11,814 nucleotides of DNA, taken from IMG/VR virus record IMGVR_UViG_2579778952_000005, positions 1-11,814 of that record; one strand, given 5' to 3'. Positions 1-9,649 of the stretch are shown piece by piece (the first letter of the stretch is position 1; the number at the start of each line of letters is the position of its first letter). A program made the translations under genes and the position numbers. The notes under the pieces were generated by a model. The model worked only from the letters and a program-made list of their open reading frames with translations. It did not search any database and was not told the origin of the DNA. The stretch comes from a virus (taxonomy: Duplodnaviria > Heunggongvirae > Uroviricota > Caudoviricetes).

Positions 1-69
1 CCGCGCAGACGATGACGTCACTGCCCGGCTGTATGCGCGAGGTTACCGACTGCGGCCTGAGTTTTTTAA
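1..69 (-). CDS. insB: IS1 InsB' N-terminal portion (expressed as InsAB' by -1 frameshift); truncated by window edge
   Basis: Slippery motif TTTAAAAAAC lies on the minus strand at 61-70. The -1 frame from it reads [22 protein letters not shown], matching the start of IS1 InsB. Confidence 0.8.
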
Positions 70-318
70 ATGGCGGAAAATCGTGTTGAGGCCAACGCCC
101 ATAATGCGGGCGGTTGCCCGGCATCCAACGCCATTCATGGCCATATCAATGATTTTCTGGTGCGTACCGGGTTGAGAAGCGGTGTAAGTGAACTGCAGTT
201 GCCATGTTTTACGGCAGTGAGAGCAGAGATAGCGCTGATGTCCGGCGGTGCTTTTGCCGTTACGCACCACCCCGTCAGTAGCTGAACAGGAGGGACAGCT
301 GATAGAAACAGAAGCCAC
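43..318 (-). CDS. insA: IS1 InsA (transposition regulator, N-terminal part of InsAB' transposase)
   Basis: 91-aa [46 protein letters not shown]...HLKNSGRSR matches IS1 InsA as I recall it, at exact length, with CxxC...CxxC zinc-finger motifs. Confidence 0.95.
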
Positions 319-351
319 TGGAGCACCTCAAAAACACCATCATACACTAAA

Positions 352-1479
352 TCAGTAAGTTGGCAGCATCACCTTAATATAAATCTGAGCCTGTTTGTAA
401 TACACGCCACCGATATTGTCTGCAGAGTTACGGCCAGTATCCTGAACATTAATGCCTGACAAAACACAACCAGAAGGTGCTCGAAACGTCCTGCTGTGCT
501 CGTTCCCGCCCGGGTTGTAAAACACCTCACTGGTATACTGAAAATTCTGTACGCCACCTGTTTTGGTCTGGTAGCGGGCATCAAAGTTTCCGTAGTCTGA
601 CGGTATAACCTGACGCCCGCATCGCCAGTTTCCCGCATCATCCATATACGCCTGACCGTCCGTACCATTATCCGTACGGCTATTATTTATCATGTAAATG
701 CCAAACTGCTCATTCCCAAGACCAGCCAGGAAATACTTTCTGTCTGCATGATCCTGACGCAGAAGCGCCTGAGCAGCATCAGTATTTATCCTGTTTTTCC
801 CGAAAATAACGTTGTTGTCACGCATCTGAATCCACGTTCCGTTACTGCTGTTAATCGCAAAACGGCCTGCAAATACATCTTCTGTAACATCCAGACCATG
901 TCCCATAGTTATGCGACCGGTCCTGAGATTAAGCGTAAAGGGGCGTAGCGGCCCAATATCACCACTCTCGCCCTGATTTTCCCGGGTAGGAATGAGGTGC
1001 AGACACTCTTCCGAACGACGAAAAATCAGACCAAAGGCTTCGTTGAAAATCCTCAGTGCATTAACACCACGGATTTTCAGCTCCCCGGTCATGGTGTCAC
1101 CATCACGCTGAACGGCATTTTTTGCCTTGTCCACCGTGGGTTTTAATCCGAGGTTTTCAACAGCCTCATCACTGTCTTCGACATCCGAAAGATTATTTTT
1201 TATCAGCAATGCCTCTTCGTTAATCGCACCGCCCACAAGTAATAATATGGCTTTATATAACTGGTCGTGTTCCTCTTTATTCAGTTTTATCCCGGCCTTC
1301 TCAATGACACCACCGATTTCCTCCTGAAGGGCATCCCACATGGCACTGTTCAGCCAGGTGGCATGACGCCCTGTACGAATATTCCCGTCAGTAAATCCGT
1401 TCTTGCCCGGGCCAAATTTATCTTTAACTGCTGTCGGAGTGTCAATTCTGTGCGTATTAAACCTCCCGTGAATGAAATA
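352..1479 (-). pseudogene. stf: Side tail fibre, C-terminal segment; 3' end replaced by IS1 sequence
   Basis: Frame is open from 1479 to the IS1 boundary at 373/374, then runs 6 codons into the IS1 IRL (VMLPTY) to a TGA at 352-354. Contains tail-fibre motifs AVQRDGDTMTGELKIRG and GNFDARY, similar to P2 gpH and lambda Stf-type fibres as I recall them. It is in frame with the upstream fragment but separated from it by TAA-TTC-TGA (1480-1488). First ATG is at 1341. Confidence 0.7.
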
Positions 1480-1485
1480 TCAGAA

Positions 1486-1794
1486 TTATGTCCTTGCCTT
1501 ATTAAACAATTCCGCTGTGAAAGTCAGTTCACCCTTTGTGAAAGGCGTTTCTCCGCCTGGCAGGGCCATAAAACTCTGTGAGACAGTCGTCCAGCTGTTT
1601 GTGTCGCTTTGTACGCCATTCTCTGTAATCGTTGCGCCTGCATGGCTGCCATTTTTCACTTTCCAGGCCAGGCAGTTATTGGGGGCATCAGCACCGCGGT
1701 AAGTGACCGAGGCCATAACAGCCACAACATCACTGTTGCTGTTATCCACCGCACCAAACGTGGCCTGTGCTGCATTCAGTGACGGCGAGAGCAT
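1486..1794 (-). pseudogene. stf: Side tail fibre, middle segment (frameshifted relative to N-terminal segment)
   Basis: 102-aa ORF whose start overlaps the stop of the N-terminal segment (TGATG at 1792-1796). Its beginning SPSLNAAQATFGAV continues the conserved fibre motif that the upstream segment starts (KGLVQLSSDTD), but in another frame. Confidence 0.6.
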
Positions 1795-2261
1795 CAGATA
1801 TCCGTATCGCTGCTCAACTGCACCAACCCCTTTTGGGTTGTGGTGGCATCCATTGTTCTTATGCTGTCGAAAATCTTCTTTACACTTTCTGCATATTCGG
1901 CTGCCGCTTCCGCATTCGCCCTGGCGTGAGACACCAGTTCCTCAAGGTGGATTATCACTTCAGGCCTGGCATTCTGCTCAGTGAATTTCAGTAAAAAATC
2001 ATTCAGCGCCCCAGGCTGAGAATCTTCGTAAACGGTGATGTCCCCTATATTCGATGGTGGATAACCATCAACCAACAGGGTGACGCTGTACTGTCCATAC
2101 TCAACGTCCATACTGTAACGCCCGGTTTCATCCGATCTGACTGAAGCTACAGTACTTGCCAGCACCGTGGTGCTGTGACGCCTTGCCGTCAGCTGAATGA
2201 TGCCATTCTGTATTGGTTTACCTGCACCGTCTTTCAGCACACCTGAAATCTTTACTGCCAT
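1794..2261 (-). CDS. stf: Side tail fibre N-terminal (tail-attachment) domain, 155 aa
   Basis: MAVKISGVLKDGAGKPIQNGIIQL...GRYSMDVEYGQYSVTLLVDGYPPS...ITVYEDSQPG closely matches the N-terminal domain of E. coli prophage side tail fibres (StfR type) as recalled. ATG at 2261 is preceded by GGGGAG. The ORF-track start at 2267 is a GTG two codons upstream. Confidence 0.8.
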   Translation of the reverse strand: MAVKISGVLKDGAGKPIQNGIIQLTARRHSTTVLASTVASVRSDETGRYSMDVEYGQYSVTLLVDGYPPSNIGDITVYEDSQPGALNDFLLKFTEQNARPEVIIHLEELVSHARANAEAAAEYAESVKKIFDSIRTMDATTTQKGLVQLSSDTDI

Positions 2262-2272
2262 ATTCACTCCCC

Positions 2273-2303
2273 AAACAAAAAAGGCACCATTTCTGGTGCC
2301 CTT
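2273..2303 (-). terminator. Rho-independent terminator between J and stf
   Basis: On the minus strand: stem GGCACC (2300-2295), loop AGAAAT, stem GGTGCC (2288-2283), followed by a T-rich run TTTTTTGTTT, immediately after the J stop codon. Confidence 0.6.
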
Positions 2304-2319
2304 ATCCAGGTTATAAAAT

Positions 2320-5300
2320 TCAACTGATACTGATACCTGCTGTTGATTTCTTCATCACCACAACCAGTAAATCGCTGATACTTGCTGTGGGATACCAGCC
2401 ATTTACCAGCCAGGCTGACACAGAAAATTCCAGCCTCATGTGACCGTGACCGGCAGGCATATCAATAACGCCACTGTAAATCAGCGTATTATCCAGCGCA
2501 GTACGGTTATAAATTTCAGCACCGTTTTTCCGCACTATCAGACGGCATGAGGAGTAAATATCAGTATGATTTCGCTCATGCTTAGCGCCGCTGAATGCCA
2601 CCGCCGGAATAACAATCTGTCGGTCAAACGGCTGATCGTCATAAATCCTGACGGTAATGGTCCCTGATGGCCACCGTTCCGGTGCACGGGAGTCCCGGGG
2701 GAAAGCTTTACCCACTGTTTTAACGAGATCGCCTTCAATCTGGTTCGCGGACAGTTTTCCCAGAACCCGGCAGTTCTTGTTAATCGTGACGTTGTTGAGC
2801 GTCCCGGCGTTCGCATTCACGTTACCGCTGATATCCGCATTTCTCGCCGTCAGTCGCCCGTCCGGTGTCAGGGAAAATGCCGGAGGATTGCCACCACTGG
2901 TAATGGTGGGGGCCGTCAGGCGTTTCAGGAACACGTCATTCATGAATATCTGATCACCCTGCGCCACAAACATCGGCGTTTCATTTCCGTTTGCCGGGTC
3001 AATAAACGCGATACGGTTAGCGGCAACCAGGAACTGGCTCAGTTTGCCTTCCTCCGTATCCTCCATGCTGAGGCCAAGCCCCGCGACATAATGTTTGCCG
3101 TCTTTGGTCTGCTCAATTTTGACGCCCCACATGGCATTCCATTTATCGTTGGCGTCCTTCCACTCTTTCGAAAACTCCTCCAGTTTGCTGGCGTTATCTT
3201 CCGTCAGCTCAAAGTTTTCCAGCAGTTCCTTGCCGAGATGCGTTTTATTGATCAACCCTTTATAAAAATTCAGATAACCTTCCGCATCATCGCTCGCCCG
3301 ACCAACGGCCTCCACAAATGCCGATTTACCAACGGTGTTCACGCTGCGGATATAAAAGTAATAATCATAACCCGGCTTAATATTGCTACTGGCGGCTATC
3401 CAGTACAGCGCCGTACCAAGATAACGCGCGCTGGTTTCAACCTGCCTGATATCGATAATCCGCTTTTCCGAGAACCAGAACTCAAACTGCACCGTCGGGT
3501 CATATACAGCCAGTTTCGGGACCGCTGTTATCTGAAAATACCCTGGTATCAGTTCAATAGTGACAGGCGCTGCCGGTGCCGCAATCCGGAACGATACCGA
3601 TGCCGGATCGCCCTGCTGCCCCCACGCATTTACCGCCCGGACCGTCAGCGTGTAACGCCCCAGCGCCAGTTGCCTGAAGCGGTATGTGGTTTCCGTCGTC
3701 CGGGCCGTGCTGACCAGCCGCTCACTGCCGTCATCCGCTGCCACGGTCAGGCGAAGCATAAAGCTCACGCCCTTCACCACCTTCGGTGTGTCCCATCGCG
3801 CCAGCACCTGATATTCCCCGCTGTCTGCAGTGACTTCTGCGGTCAGGTGCTGCACCGCTGGCGGCGTGACACCATTCACCGTGCCACTCTGTTCGCCGTC
3901 AAAGTGCGCCCCGTTATCCACGATGGCCTCTTTTTCCGGCACATGCTGCACGGCGGTGATGGCATACGTGCCGTCGTCGTTCTCACGGATACTCACGCAG
4001 CGGAACAGTCGCTGGCGCAGCGTCGGCAGCTTCAGCCCCCATACGCTGTATTCAGCAACACCGTCAGGAACACGGCTCACTTTTACCTTCACGCCGTCGG
4101 TGACGGACTGAACCTCCACGCTGACCGGATTGCCACTTCCGTCAACCAGGCTTATCAGCGTGGTACCGGAGGATGGCAGCGTGATTTCACGGTCGAGCGT
4201 CAGCGTCCGGGTCTGGCTGTTCACCGCCAGCACACGACCACCGGTGCTGATACCGGCATAGTCATCATCACAGATTTCAATAACATCGCCCGGTACATGG
4301 CGAAGCCCTTCTGCGCCGACGCTGAAATCCACGGTCTGCGTTTCCAGCAGTTCTGTTTTAATCAGCCACAGCCCGGCGCGGTGTGCCTGCCCCCGACTGG
4401 TACAGCCAAAGGCATCCATCTTCGTGACGTTACGACCGTAACGGGCAATGGCCTGCGTGTCCTCCACAAGCTCTGTCGCCGTCTCCCAGCCGTTATCCGG
4501 GTCAATCCAGTTCACCTCAACGGCATTATGGCGGTCCTTCAGGGCGCTGAAGCTGTAGCGGAACGGCGCGCCATCATCCGGCATCACCACATTACTGCGG
4601 TTATAGGTCCACACCTTATCTGATGGTCGGTCCTGCACGAACGTCAGCGTCTGCCCGTTCCATACCGGCATACAGCGCATCGCCGAGCAAAAATCACTGA
4701 GCACATCCCACGCCTTGCGCTGTGTGGTCAGGTACGCATTACAGGTAATGCGCGGCTCCGTGCCGCCAAAGCCATCCGGCACTGACTGGTCGCAATTCTG
4801 GCCGATGACATACAGCGCCCATTTATCCACATCCGCTGCACCAAGACGTTTCCCCATGCCGTAGCGCGGATGGGTCAGCATATCCCACAGACACCAGGCC
4901 ATGTTGTTGCTGTATGCCGGTTTAAACGTTCCGTCCCAGATACCGCTGTATTGTCGCGTCTGCGGGTTATAGTTCGACGGCACCTGCAGAATGCGCCCGC
5001 GCAGATGATAATTACGGCTCACCTGCTGGCTGCCGAACTGCTCCGAATCCACCTGCACGCCGACCAGTGCCGTGTTCGGGTAGCACTGTTTCACATCGAT
5101 GATTTCGGTGTATGACGACCAGAGCGTTTTGTTCTGCAGCTGGTCTGTGGTGCTGTCCGGCGTCATCCTGCGCATCCGGATATTAAACGGGCGCGGCGGC
5201 AGGTTACCCACCACCACCGAGGCCAGATACTGCGAGGTGGTTTTGCCTTTAATGGTGATGTCTTTTTCCGTCACCCAGCCACCGTTACGCTGTATCTGAA

Positions 5301-5715
5301 CCAGCAGGCGGACTTCCGATGGATTCCTGTCCCCCTTTGAGGTGGTTTCCACCAGTGCCTGCACACCGAAGGTAAAACGCAGACGGTCGATGTTTGCCGA
5401 CGTGATGGTCCGGGTGATCGGCGTATCATATTTCACTTCCGTACCCAGCACCGTCTCGGAGCCGGAGGATTCAAACCCCTCCGGCGGTGACTGCTCCTGC
5501 TCACCGGCCCGGAACACCACCGTGACGCCGGATATATTGGTATTCCCCTCACTGTCCAGCACCGGCGTACTGTTCAGCAGCACGCTTTTTAATCCATCCA
5601 CCGGACCTTCAACCGGCCCTTCGCTGATGGCATCGATCACACTCAGCAACTGCGTGGACTTCAGGTTGTCCTTCGCTTCGCGCGGGGTATGCCCCTTACT
5701 GCTGCCTTTACCCAT
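2320..5715 (-). CDS. J: Tail tip host-specificity protein J (central tail fibre), intact, 1131 aa
   Basis: 1131-aa ORF, within one residue of lambda gpJ length, lying directly downstream of I as in lambda. Identity rests on length and synteny; the sequence match to lambda J was not checked. Confidence 0.93.
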
Positions 5716-5775
5716 TCGTCATGCTCCATAAACGACAAAACCGCCCGGAGGCGGTTTCACATAAAATATTTTGCA

Positions 5776-6447
5776 TCATCGACCAATCACCACAACCTGA
5801 CCACCATCCCCTTCGTCTGCCGTGCTGATCTCCTGAGAAATCACGCGTGACCCCACGCGCATTTCACCGTACAGAACGGGCAGAACATTGCCCTGGGCAA
5901 CCATGTTATCCAGTGAGGAGAAATACGTGTTCTGCTTACCGTTATCCGTTGTCTGTGTACGGGGAGTTCTGGCTTTCGGTGCCAGCATCTGCGCCACACC
6001 ACCGAGCACCATACTGGCACCGAGAGAAAACAGGATGCCGGTCATACCACCGGCCCCAATGGCTGCCCCCCATGCTGCAAGGGTGGCTCCGGCGGTAAAG
6101 AATGATCCGGCAATGGCGGCTGCTCCCAGGACAATCTGGAATACACCACCTGACTTGGCCCCGGCGACTCTGGGAACAATATGAATCACAGCGCCATCAG
6201 GCAGAGTCTCATGTAACTGCGCCGTTAATCTGGACGTGCTGACGTCCCGCCCGGCAATCCGTACCTGATACCAGCCGTCGCTCAGTTTCTGACGAAACGC
6301 CGGGAGCTGTGTGGCCAGCGCCCGGATGGCTTCAGCCCCCGTTTTCACACGAAGGTCGATGCGGCGGCCAAATCGTTGCAAATCCCCGTAAAGGCAGATG
6401 CGTGCCATTCCCGGTGACGCCAGAGGGAGTGTGTGCGTCGCTGCCAT
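5776..6447 (-). CDS. I: Tail assembly protein I
   Basis: 223-aa ORF, the same length as lambda gpI, with a Gly/Ala-rich hydrophobic C-terminal half. Its start lies 103 nt inside the 3' end of K, the same out-of-frame overlap as in lambda. Confidence 0.92.
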   Translation of the reverse strand: MAATHTLPLASPGMARICLYGDLQRFGRRIDLRVKTGAEAIRALATQLPAFRQKLSDGWYQVRIAGRDVSTSRLTAQLHETLPDGAVIHIVPRVAGAKSGGVFQIVLGAAAIAGSFFTAGATLAAWGAAIGAGGMTGILFSLGASMVLGGVAQMLAPKARTPRTQTTDNGKQNTYFSSLDNMVAQGNVLPVLYGEMRVGSRVISQEISTADEGDGGQVVVIGR

Positions 6448-7088
6448 TTGTCGGTATACCTCTCTCGTTTACTCAGTTGTTCAGGAATATGGTGCAGCAG
6501 CTCGCCATCACCACAGTAAATGGCGGCATGATTCGGCACCGATGAACCAAAGCAGCACAGCAGCACGTCGCCAGGCTGCGCCTCTGTCAGTGCGACACGG
6601 TAAAAACCAGTCGCCTCCATATTGTCAAGATAGAGATTCTGACCGTTACGCCACCAGTCATCCCCGCGATGAAAATCCGGCATCTCAATCCCCGCCAGAT
6701 GATAAGCATCCCGGAACAGCGTGTAACAGTCCGTCACCCCGTGCTCAAAGCGACGCCCGGTGAGATGCGGCACACAGCGGAACTTGTGAATCGCCCCCCG
6801 GCAGACCAGCCACCACGGCAAATCACTCTGCACCTGCAGCCGCCGGTCAGCATCACTCAGCCAGGGCAGACCTCCGGGGTGGCTGTGGACCAGCGCCACA
6901 ATCTCACCCTGCATTTCTGCCTGCAGCCAGTCTTCCGGCGACATACGGAAATACGCCTCCGGCTCACCGGAGATATTCACGCAGGGAAAATATCTTTCCC
7001 CCTCCGGCGTGCTTACCACGAAGCCGCACGACTCCGCTGGCGCACATCGCCGGGCGTGCGCCAGAATCGCTGATTCTGTCTCTGTCAT
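6345..7088 (-). CDS. K: Tail assembly protein K (JAB/MPN plus NlpC/P60 domains)
   Basis: Contains a JAMM-type motif HSHPGGLPWLSDAD and an NlpC/P60-like Cys/His region (GVTDCYTLF, PNHAAIY). Start chosen at ATG 7088 (MTETES...). The ORF-track start at 7163 is a GTG overlapping L. The classical 199-aa lambda K would start at the internal M at 6944. Confidence 0.85.
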   Translation of the reverse strand: MTETESAILAHARRCAPAESCGFVVSTPEGERYFPCVNISGEPEAYFRMSPEDWLQAEMQGEIVALVHSHPGGLPWLSDADRRLQVQSDLPWWLVCRGAIHKFRCVPHLTGRRFEHGVTDCYTLFRDAYHLAGIEMPDFHRGDDWWRNGQNLYLDNMEATGFYRVALTEAQPGDVLLCCFGSSVPNHAAIYCGDGELLHHIPEQLSKRERYTDKWQRRTHSLWRHREWHASAFTGICNDLAAASTFV

Positions 7089-7092
7089 GGGA

Positions 7093-7716
7093 TTACTGCG
7101 AAAGTTTGTTAATGGAAAGGAAGCCGCCAAAGTTGCCGACGTTATTGCGAAACTTACAGCCACTCAGGCATTTGCTGCATTTATCTTTCGTGATATCGGA
7201 CGTCGGCTGGTCATATTCATCCGCGACAGCCGGACCGCTATAACCGCACTCGTCACCGCGATAGGTCCAGGTGCAGGTGTTGGCCAGCATGATACGTCCC
7301 GGAAAAACAGCGCCATCCGTTTCCGTCGGCGTGGACAGTACAAAGGAGGCACTCACCGCGCTCAGTTCGCTGCACTGCTCAATGCGCCAGCGGCTGATCA
7401 CCTCCTGCTCCGGATCGGCGTCACTGTTTCCGTTGACGAAGTTCACCGCATCCAGAAAACAGGCGTAAACCTTACGCCGGACCACCGTTCCGCCGACCAG
7501 ACTCTGCAGATCTTCCGCCATCCCGGTGACCATACCGTACAGGTTAGAAACCGTCAGCGTGGGGCGCGTACTGGTGCCTTTGCCATTCAGTTCAAAACCA
7601 CTCCCCTGAATGGGATACGGCTGATACTGTCGCCCCTGCCAGGTGACCGGCTCACCTTTTTCGTTCTGCTCATTACAGAAAAAATAACGTTCTCCACCGA
7701 CCTCTGTCAGGTCGAT
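7093..7716 (-). pseudogene. L: Tail tip protein L, 5'-truncated (lacks about the first 25 codons and its start)
   Basis: Frame reads [37 protein letters not shown]...MVTGMAEDLQSLVGG...CSKCLSGCKFRNNVGNFGGFLSINKLSQ, matching lambda gpL from about residue 26 to the end, including the C-terminal Cys cluster. Upstream, the frame hits TAA at 7726-7728 inside V-derived sequence. First ATG is at 7533. Confidence 0.85.
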
Positions 7717-8200
7717 TTGCCGCTGTTACCGTGCTGCGATCTTCTGCCATCGACGGACGGCCCACATTGGTGACTTTCACCGTGCGGGTGATCACTTCCT
7801 TCGCCGTCACCGCCTTACCGATACTGCTGACCCAGCCACGGAACACATCGACCGTGCCGTTCGGGAAGCGGATTTTATAGGCACGGGTATCGCCTTCATT
7901 AAACCACGCCAGCAGCGCCTGCTGCCCCTGCTCTCCGGGCATCCACGCCAGCGTGAAGCTGGTATCTCCGGCAGATTTCTGCCCCTGCCCGGTCGCAGTC
8001 CAGTCTGCATCTTCATCATCGAGATAGCTGTCGTCATAGGACTCAGCGGTCAGTTCGCCGGGCGTCAGGTCTTTAACTTTTGCCAGACGCGACCAGTCAA
8101 CGTCTGAAAGCGGATTCGCATAAGGGTCACCGCTCCCCTTATAAACCCACAGGGTGGTCCCGGCACCTTTCACCGGCATTGTAGGATTTGGTACAGGCAT
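7673..8200 (-). pseudogene. V: Major tail protein V, 3'-truncated (residues 1 to about 161, then 14 out-of-frame codons)
   Basis: [45 protein letters not shown]...RSTVTAA matches lambda gpV as recalled. After codon 7720-7718 the sequence becomes L-derived and the frame ends [18 protein letters not shown]. ATG at 8200 is preceded by GAGGA and lies 7 nt after the U stop. Confidence 0.85.
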
Positions 8201-8207
8201 AGCGTCC

Positions 8208-8603
8208 TCACATTTCATAGGTAATGACATAAGTCATATCGGCTGAACTCCACAGGCCCGCATCATCGTCGCGCCGGTAGTCATAGCCACTGACCACCAT
8301 ACTGGTGATCAAATCTGACAGTGCCGGGATATCGCTCATCACCGGATAAATCCGGGACTCCATCCACGCATCCAGCTCTGAATTCGGCACCTGAGCAGGC
8401 AGGAAAACTTCGATATGCAGCTCCGCCTGCCAGGTATCGCTGTCCAGCTCTTCGCCCGTGTATTCAGCGCCGGTGAGATAAACGGCAACTGCCGGAAAAT
8501 CCGCCTCATCAAAAACAGCGGGGCGACCATCAAAAAACGTCGCCCCGGTGTCATGCTTCTCCAGTGCATCCAGTACGGCTGCACGGAGTTCAGTATGTTT
8601 CAT
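8208..8603 (-). CDS. U: Tail terminator protein U
   Basis: 131-aa [53 protein letters not shown]... matches lambda gpU at the same length. Its ATG overlaps the upstream stop in an ATGA arrangement, as for Z-U in lambda. Confidence 0.93.
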
Positions 8604-9649
8604 CGCTTTATTACCATCCTCAGTTGATGCTGCAGCGCATAGCCCAGCTCTTTCGGAAGACGTTCACGCCGTATCCGCTCAATATTCTGTTTAAACGCCG
8701 TGGTCAGCGGCACCGCCATCGGGATTTTCACCACATCAATGGGGTAACGGTTTTTCCCGGCCACACGCTGCATAACATGCCACCGGCCGTTTTTCAGTTG
8801 CTGAATAAACGCGCCGGGAATACGACGGTTACCCACCACAAGCACGCTGCCGCCACCTTTCAGGGATGAACGCTGCCCCTTTTTACGACGCCTGCGGCGG
8901 GACAGGACAACCCGCGCATTACCCAGCTTGATTACGGGCAAATCCCCCCGGTTAACTTTGATTCTGGCCTGCGGATTTTTGACCGTGGCCCTTTTCAGCC
9001 TGGCCCTTTCCTTTACCAGTTTCCGGCGTACCTTTGTCTCACGGGCAACCTGTGACGCAGACTGCGATATCGCGGATGAAGCAACGCGGTTATCCTCATC
9101 AAAGGCAGCAAGTTCATCATAACCCGCCACATCCACTGACTTTTCACGGTAGTTTTTTGCCGCTTTACCGCCCAGGCACCAGAAGCCACGCCCATTGGTG
9201 AAACGCTTCATGGTGAGCGTGTTATCCCGGTGCTTTTTGCCATACCACGGGGCCAGCGCCAGCAGCGACGGAATATCACGAATAGTCGGCTCAACGTGGG
9301 TTTTCATAAAGTTCTCGGCATCACCATCCGTCGGCAACCAGATAAGGGTGTTGCGCTGCTTATGCTCTATGAAGTAGGCATAAACACCCAGCAGCATTTT
9401 GGAATAACCAACACGGGCAGACTTCACCACATTCACCTCGCGGATGTAGTCACTGCCCATCGCATTCATGATGGCCCGCTGAAAGGGCAGTGTTTCCCAG
9501 CGCCCTTCCTGGTATGCGGATTCTTTCGGGAGATAGTAACTGGCATCCGCCCATTCAACGGCAGTCTGTGGCTCCGGCCTGAACAGGGCTCGCAGCCCGG
9601 CGCGTACATCACGCCGCAGAATATCAATCTGACTGTTCGATATATTCAC
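8600..9649 (-). pseudogene. In-frame fusion: terminase large subunit A N-terminus (about 185 aa) joined to tail completion protein Z C-terminus (about 163 aa)
   Basis: Residues 1-185 (MNISNSQ...VVKSARVGYSK Walker A...DVAGYDELAAFDE) match the lambda gpA N-terminus. Residues 187-349 (NRVASSAISQSASQVARETKV...LRMVIKR) match lambda gpZ from about residue 30 to its C-terminus. GTG start at 9649 overlaps the Nu1 3' end by 26 nt, as in lambda. Confidence 0.85.

Follow-up and report, generated by a model that had tools for sequence, protein, structure and literature searches.

The locus studied here lies on the minus strand of a stretch of 11,814 nt, referred to below as the window, from the virus record IMGVR_UViG_2579778952_000005. 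Between positions 2261 and 352 it carries three short open reading frames (ORFs), here called pieces 1 to 3, at the place where a lambdoid prophage encodes its side tail fibre (Stf). Are they one fibre gene interrupted twice, as a first-pass annotation proposed, or the remains of several genes? We found that they are the remains of three separate adjacent genes, designated g1, g2 and g3; intact relatives encode these three genes separately. The first-pass annotation was right that a side tail fibre locus is broken here, and its view of one gene in three pieces has to be given up. We are highly confident that this region once encoded the receptor-binding end of a lambdoid prophage of the type that integrates at potB/potC, that the prophage is now cryptic and the region decayed, and that three independent lesions have affected it.

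Layout of the locus and its intact relatives

The features of the locus, in the order of the minus strand, are:

2320 to 5715, minus strand: gpJ central tail fibre gene, intact, 1131 aa (Pfam J-domain set; gpJ annotation in relatives)
1805 to 2261, minus strand: 5′ remnant of g1, codons 1-153, with the collar domain, a linker, the beginning of a coiled coil and, from the first fibre repeat, its initial 15 residues (PF08400, PF03406 and alignment to E200086)
1801 to 1804, minus strand: junction of a 1,396-bp deletion, with the 4-nt microhomology CGGA (TCCG on the plus strand) (breakpoints from BLAST; sequences at the junction)
1486 to 1800, minus strand: 3′ remnant of g2 (phrog_8291, 349 aa when intact), codons 245-349 and its genuine TAA stop (1488-1486) (alignment to g2 of E200086)
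1456 to 1485, minus strand: natural intergenic spacer between g2 and g3, 30 nt (TTCTGATATTTCATTCACGGGAGGTTTAAT), with the Shine-Dalgarno sequence GGGAGG (1467-1462); identical in E200086
374 to 1455, minus strand: g3 remnant, a tail fibre gene of the phiP27 L54 type (phrog_6859), codons 1-360 of 369 kept (PHROGs, E = 2.7e-169; tblastn)
1 to 373, minus strand: left end of the insertion sequence (IS) IS1, including insA (43-318), inserted in the 3′ end of g3 (Pfam InsA domains; boundary at 373/374)

Since an intact gpJ lies directly upstream, the locus is fixed as the tail end of a lambdoid prophage. The ATG of g1 (2261) is found 59 nt past the gpJ stop (2320), which is the Stf-type position just downstream of J in a lambdoid tail module.

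The window was compared by megablast with 5,426 complete E. coli genomes, and the matches fell into three groups. Three complete genomes, among them E400634 (locus L001), have the same arrangement and the same deletion junction at 99.9% identity; positions 367-11814 of the window are 99.97% identical to E400634. Eight genomes, for example E200086 (L002), match in two blocks with extra DNA between them. Many genomes match only from within piece 2 onward, in a different prophage, as does UTAK-3 (L003). The E200086 prophage at potB/potC is apparently complete, with int/xis at one end, tfa at the other and the terminase, head and tail genes between them. Examined for an intact version of the gene, it showed after gpJ three separate annotated coding sequences plus the tfa gene for a fibre assembly chaperone. 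These are g1 (annotated ‘prophage tail fiber N-terminal domain-containing protein’), g2 (‘hypothetical protein’) and g3 (‘phage tail protein’). The g1 product, of 365 aa, combines the Stf collar domain with two fibre repeats and a tail rich in repeats, and that of g3, of 369 aa, is a phiP27 L54-type fibre with a distal part of the P2 H/Mu S type. UTAK-3 likewise has two annotated genes at the boundary between g2 and g3.

A 1,396-bp deletion joins g1 to g2

Piece 1 is an ORF at 1794-2267, with its annotated ATG at 2261, that ends ...TTQKGLVQLSSDTDI-TGA; its C-terminal reading is also given as ...KGLVQLSSDTDI-TGA, and the TGA lies at 1796-1794. Piece 2 (1486-1794) starts with MLSPSLNAAQATFGAV in a different frame, and its ATG overlaps the TGA of piece 1 (TGATG). 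The stop of piece 1 and the change of frame into piece 2 had thus been described correctly. The first-pass annotation further placed the frame change within a conserved motif. A break does lie inside a VQLSS...AATPKAVK repeat, but it is a 1,396-bp deletion joining two genes and no frameshift.

The window aligns with E200086 in two blocks, one reaching to g1 codon 153/154 and the other starting at g2 codon 245. The lost segment (L002 6531-7926) comprises g1 from the third base of codon 154 to the stop, a 24-nt spacer and codons 1-244 of g2. CGGA is present at both deletion ends in the intact locus, and these ends share only CGGA, within a loose 15-nt resemblance. After VQLSSDTD the intact relative continues SGSEDFAATPKAVK. 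In the window the frame of g1 past codon 153 reads D-I-stop within g2 sequence, and SPSLNAAQATFGAV corresponds to residues 250-263 of g2, an unrelated protein of 349 aa. The listed 102-aa ORF of piece 2 begins at the internal Met248 of g2, MLSPSLNAAQATFGAV being residues 248-263; directly before this methionine, G245-Y246-L247 are invariant in the g2 family alignment (A1). Since the missing segment completes both the g1 and the g2 ORF, we read the difference as a deletion in the window, and an insertion in the relative was rejected on the same ground. Programmed ribosomal frameshifting was also considered and rejected, since the two frames are parts of different genes in intact relatives, where 1.4 kb separates them.

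Profile searches agreed with the alignment. The collar domain is present in piece 1 (PF08400, phage_tail_N, 180.6 bits, profile positions 1-129 of 134). A full Phage_fiber_2 repeat (PF03406, ...VQLSSATNSTSETLAATPKAVK...) is not kept, as the window matches only positions 1-15 of 42 with 16.8-18.3 bits (cutoff 22), with or without frame correction. The intact g1 segment gives two Phage_fiber_2 matches at positions 1-41 with 124 bits; its sequence is ...KGLVQLSSDTDSGSEDFAATPKAVKAAYD..., followed by the second repeat. Pieces 1 and 2 had been thought to span the motif jointly. When the end of piece 1 was fused in a corrected frame to the start of piece 2, the match to Phage_fiber_2 still covered positions 1-15 only, at 18.3 bits and so below the cutoff, and the part contributed by piece 2 consists of g2 residues. 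RefSeq labels this stretch in E400634 ‘incomplete; missing C-terminus’. Even intact g1 is not a single polypeptide running from the collar to a tip served by Tfa: it stops at 365 aa with 17-aa repeats, and the P2 H-type tip is on g3.

The g2-g3 boundary and the lesions in g3

Beyond piece 2 the minus strand reads TAA (1488-1486), TTC (1485-1483) and TGA (1482-1480), followed by a frame that is open, in phase with piece 2, to position 352. The common frame of pieces 2 and 3, with TAA-TTC-TGA at 1480-1488 between them, had been reported accurately and was attributed to a short indel pair or a recombination scar. This explanation does not survive the comparison with E200086, where separate adjacent genes are divided at just this boundary. 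TAA is the genuine stop of g2, and the in-phase TGA is an ordinary triplet of the conserved 30-nt spacer. The spacer is base-for-base equal to that of E200086, a change in the g3 start codon lying just past it, and at least the 3′ half of the spacer, which extends from the ribosome-binding site to the start codon, is also present in UTAK-3. In both relatives the spacer divides two annotated coding sequences. Because the double stop coincides with a natural gene end and its spacer, no special explanation is needed.

Two lesions in addition to those considered in the first-pass annotation were observed in g3. The ribosome-binding site GGGAGG is located 6 nt upstream of the g3 start. The start codon (1455-1453) is ATG in E200086 and UTAK-3 and ACG in the window and E400634; for E400634 RefSeq used an upstream non-ATG start. 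At the other end the reading frame is cut by IS1 at 373/374, and IS1 sequence supplies KVMLPTY-stop (stop at 354-352) in place of the last nine codons (NGAWRSVSG). The body of g3 is 99% identical to intact g3. In a tblastn search g3 showed full-length similarity only to phiP27 L54, a type that has its own start, an N-terminal anchor of ∼120 aa (MHRIDTPTAVK...) and the distal end ...YINGxW...; in the window the start is ACG and NGAW is lost. Residues ∼122-360 match C-terminal parts of P2 H, Mu S, SfMu and P1/P7 S, so the proposed likeness to P2 gpH-type fibres holds for the distal part of piece 3.

The ORF at 43-318 encodes the InsA zinc-ribbon/helix-turn-helix domains (PF03811, 75.3 bits; PF12759, 104.8 bits) beside the end of the element. 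The window is homologous to the IS-free E400634 as far as ...ATATTAA (374); from there E400634 continues with TGGTGCATGG, the window with GGTGATGCTGCC. This terminal sequence begins at 373 in the minus-strand reading, and we take it to be the left inverted repeat (IRL) of IS1. The element has the same orientation as the fibre genes and its right end lies outside the window, which does not contain tfa either. Since E400634, E500002 and E600003 are near-identical but without IS1, its insertion is the most recent lesion; E400634 continues into tfa.

These observations lead to the following reading. Ancestrally, gpJ was followed by four genes in two cassettes, namely g1 (365 aa, the anchor with the Stf collar) and g2 (349 aa, predicted to be lectin-like), and g3 (369-aa fibre) and tfa. 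The 1,396-bp deletion at the 4-nt microhomology, probably the result of illegitimate recombination, brought g2 codon 245 directly behind g1 codon 153/154 in another frame. It created a stub of 155 aa (piece 1) and left the last 105 codons of g2, readable as an ORF from the internal Met248 (piece 2). A T to C transition changed the g3 start codon from ATG to ACG, and the IS1 insertion replaced the last nine g3 codons. The lesions are probably inactivating, and slippage or illegitimate recombination while selection was relaxed would be their source. No piece is expected to work as a fibre.

Decay in the remainder of the prophage

Comparison with the intact E200086 prophage revealed two more deletions in the window, with 2-nt microhomology at each junction:

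7717-7718, minus strand (ORFs 7673-8230 and 7093-7533): 4,104-bp deletion joining the tail tube gene V to the minor tail gene L, with G, T, the tape measure gene and M removed
9091-9092, minus strand (ORF 8600-9649): 6,790-bp deletion joining the terminase large subunit gene to gpZ, with the portal, protease, decoration, capsid and head-tail genes removed

The larger deletion happens to yield an in-frame ORF of 349 aa that combines GpA_ATPase (47-194) and Minor_tail_Z (187-349). The order on the minus strand is now Nu1, the GpA::GpZ fusion ORF, U, a stub of the tail-tube gene V, a stub of L, K, I, J, the three ORFs of the fibre locus and the left end of IS1. With the portal, capsid, tape-measure and tail-tube genes lost, no particles can form. 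The microhomologies suggest that the fibre lesions are part of a general decay by illegitimate recombination and IS activity. Pseudogenisation at the locus is of an ordinary, already annotated kind.

Strains with this prophage carry a second copy of g2 elsewhere in their chromosomes (NZ_CM128600.1, 2428236-2429045, strain H73; NZ_CM128605.1, 2191816-2193366, strain H61). In E200086 the second copy also includes the 3′ end of g1, at 100% identity. The presence of second fibre-gene copies in the same genome makes exchange between prophages, or repair of the fibre locus, possible.

Alternative explanations

We can practically dismiss a single Stf gene with a small frameshift in a conserved motif and two in-frame stops in tandem, explained by a recombination scar or a pair of short indels. 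Piece 1 does end within a Phage_fiber_2 repeat, the beginning of piece 2 bears a superficial likeness to the motif's second half, and pieces 2 and 3 are in the same phase. Yet 1,396 bp are absent at the first junction, and the fused peptide matches only positions 1-15 of the 42 of the repeat, a Pfam result on which a single gene restored by frame correction was rejected. Moreover, piece 2 is part of a separate family of 349 aa with a predicted jelly-roll fold, and the stop with its spacer is the normal g2-g3 boundary of intact relatives. An error of assembly is hardly more credible. Here g1 would have been mis-joined to g2 through a second g2-g3-tfa copy in another prophage of the same genome. 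Deletion-bearing strains hold such a second, intact g2 copy elsewhere (as in H73), and with the g2-g3-tfa block 98.6% identical between lambdoid and P27-like prophages, repeats that could confuse an assembler exist. The junction, however, lies inside g2, 735 nt past the start of the homology between the two prophages, and shares only 4 nt with the g1 side, which makes it an unlikely join for an assembler. It also occurs in three complete genomes as well as in the window, the latter differing by IS1.

The truncated state might instead be selected, the collar-only Stf stub and a free C-terminal g2 domain serving in exclusion, as a decoy or as a reservoir for recombination. In its favour, gpJ, gpI, gpK and gpU are still intact ORFs, and the overlap of the piece 1 stop with the piece 2 start would permit translational coupling. 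Defective prophages are also known to donate tail fibre DNA to infecting phages (PMC3945230). We consider a function very unlikely all the same, as the g2 fragment is without its N-terminal half and the first elements of the C-terminal sandwich, and g3 has lost its start codon and C-terminus. In addition, three deletions with microhomologies of 2-4 nt look like random decay, and the state is carried by only a handful of the 5,426 genomes.

Some points count against our own reading, that of three genes decayed by three lesions. The three genomes that share the junction are related isolates resembling enterotoxigenic E. coli (ETEC), probably from one sequencing project, and perhaps represent one lineage. 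The polarity of the 1,396-bp difference, a deletion in the window and not an insertion in E200086, is based on ORF completeness and on no dated phylogeny. A stub could still be produced, as the collar domain of piece 1 is intact and its stop overlaps the ATG of piece 2. Weak translation of g3 is also conceivable, since its ribosome-binding site is undamaged and ACG can serve, very weakly, for initiation.

For the window the value of the result is mainly one of annotation: three ORFs that resemble one frameshifted fibre gene are the stubs of three genes. To ‘repair’ the gene by correcting the frame, or to re-sequence 1470-1500 and 1785-1800, would be misguided. The lesson is that a break within a familiar motif can conceal a deletion on the kilobase scale into the adjacent gene.

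The g2 family and its repeat-tailed partners

The intact g2 protein matched phrog_8291 (unknown function) over 349 of 349 positions. No Pfam match was obtained for it, and a tblastn search with full g2, all of piece 2 included, gave no match among 50,697 phage records, those of lambda and P2 among them. Members of the family appear to be known from prophages only. Nothing significant came from a profile search against Protein Data Bank (PDB) sequences (best E = 0.3). The 25 homologues are all stand-alone proteins of 343-387 aa, and the family is tiny in large protein libraries, with 28 clusters at 90% identity and 17 representatives at 50% in 1.84 billion proteins. One of the representatives, of 104 aa, matches only positions 247-348 of the g2 profile. 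A search for related loci in GTDB genomes returned one locus only, from E. albertii, which is too few for statistics.

The AlphaFold2 model of g2 is confident (pLDDT 91.4, pTM 0.90). The predicted fold resembles those of jelly-roll/concanavalin A (ConA)-like lectins, carbohydrate-binding modules, glucanases and lyases, and the model also matches ‘virion structural proteins’ of ∼300-370 aa from several siphophages with TM scores of 0.6-0.66. Intact members of the family are two-part, beta-rich proteins that cover the 349-position profile from one end to the other; of g2 the window keeps only codons 245-349. The entire N-terminal half is missing and, according to a DSSP strand map, so are the first elements of the C-terminal sandwich.

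In all contexts retrieved, the g2 homologue (down to 41% identity) is encoded 0-30 nt downstream of a short protein with a C-terminal repeat, a motif of ∼17 aa (xPLxINRxxLQSGxxxx) present in 2-7 copies. L008 is an exception in that the repeats are on a separate ORF of 64 aa. The pair of repeats and g2 was seen on at least four different anchors:

Stf collar: L002, L007, L016 and L018
Mu Gp48 (baseplate wedge): L003 and L013
P2 H-like collar: L012
Collagen-like fibre of an SU10-like phage: L014
Repeat-bearing regions: L002:6880-7167; L003:6860-7258; L012:5700-5976; L016:4759-4939; upstream ORFs of L013, L014 and L018

The repeats form a DNA-level tandem array in L016 (51 nt × 3.5). Tandem Repeats Finder detected no DNA-level repeat in g1 of L002, where the 17-aa repeats are visible in the protein only. 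In L016, a lambdoid prophage that also sits at potB, the side-fibre locus has only g1 and g2, so g1 with g2 and g3 with tfa look like two separate cassettes. The block from g2 to tfa is 98.6% identical and gap-free between L002 (7191-10050) and L003 (7281-10140), with homology starting at the exact start codon of g2. In L003 this block is in a phiP27/Mu-like prophage at ydfJ, and in L002 it is in a lambdoid prophage at potB/potC, where g3 carries a myovirus-type N-terminal anchor within a lambdoid tail locus. RefSeq calls the Gp48-repeat fusion of UTAK-3 a truncated YmfQ pseudogene; a continuous ORF of 319 aa covers it, and the call is probably wrong.

The most economical reading of this co-occurrence and of the predicted fold is that g2 is a carbohydrate-binding tip docked on the repeat tail. 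We therefore put forward, tentatively and with somewhat less than an even chance of being right, that the window holds the wreck of an undescribed portable receptor-binding cassette of two genes, a short repeat-tailed virion anchor and g2 docking on the repeats as its tip. A literature search on split Stf architectures and PF08400 found no description of g2 or of the repeat tail. In the window the cassette is non-functional, since every repeat and two-thirds of g2 fell within the deletion. Beyond the window the gain is modest but real: a rare, uncharacterised lectin-like family is found, always beside a repeat-tailed anchor, in phage tails of very different kinds. Should this pair prove to be a plug-in receptor-binding device, it would be of interest for the engineering of phage host range, including chimeras of lambda Stf.

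Comparison with known systems

In long tail fibres of the T2/S16 type the adhesin at the tip, gp38, is bound to gp37 and has a gene of its own. By analogy only, docking of g2 on the g1 C-terminus would give a similar arrangement, with a shaft and an adhesin encoded just downstream. In sequence and fold gp38 and g2 are unrelated, and docking of g2 is suggested by gene order and co-occurrence only.

The nearest counterpart of g3 is L54 of phiP27, a Mu-like myovirus in which the L54 gene follows that of the baseplate wedge and is paired with the gene of L55, an assembly protein. The two proteins align over their full length from the same start methionine with 61-64% identity. In contrast to phiP27, the cassette is found here in a lambdoid siphovirus prophage downstream of g1 and g2, and g3 of the window is without ATG and has its C-terminus replaced by IS1. 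The distal module of P2 H, Mu S and P1 S is recognizable in g3 at residues ∼122-360, and a PF02413 chaperone gene comes next in intact relatives.

The locus resembles that of Stf/Tfa in Ur-lambda in its place directly after J and in having a PF08400 N-terminal domain followed by Phage_fiber_2 repeats. In Ur-lambda the PF08400 domain forms a collar of 12 copies around the tail tip, followed by a linker and a coiled coil (PMC12617516). Whereas Stf of lambda is one long polypeptide reaching to the receptor-binding tip, the intact anchor here has 365 aa and ends in 17-aa repeats, with the distal functions on separate genes. As in laboratory lambda, stf is inactivated in the strain at hand; in lambda it was broken by a frameshift, but here by a 1.4-kb deletion that reaches into the gene downstream.

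Cryptic lambdoid prophages of E. coli are eroded by deletions and IS elements, examples being Rac, Qin and DLP12 of K-12. The window shares with them internal deletions of head and tail genes, an IS insertion and stubs beside intact neighbours. There is no essential difference from prophages of this type, and the window is another instance of them, at potB/potC.

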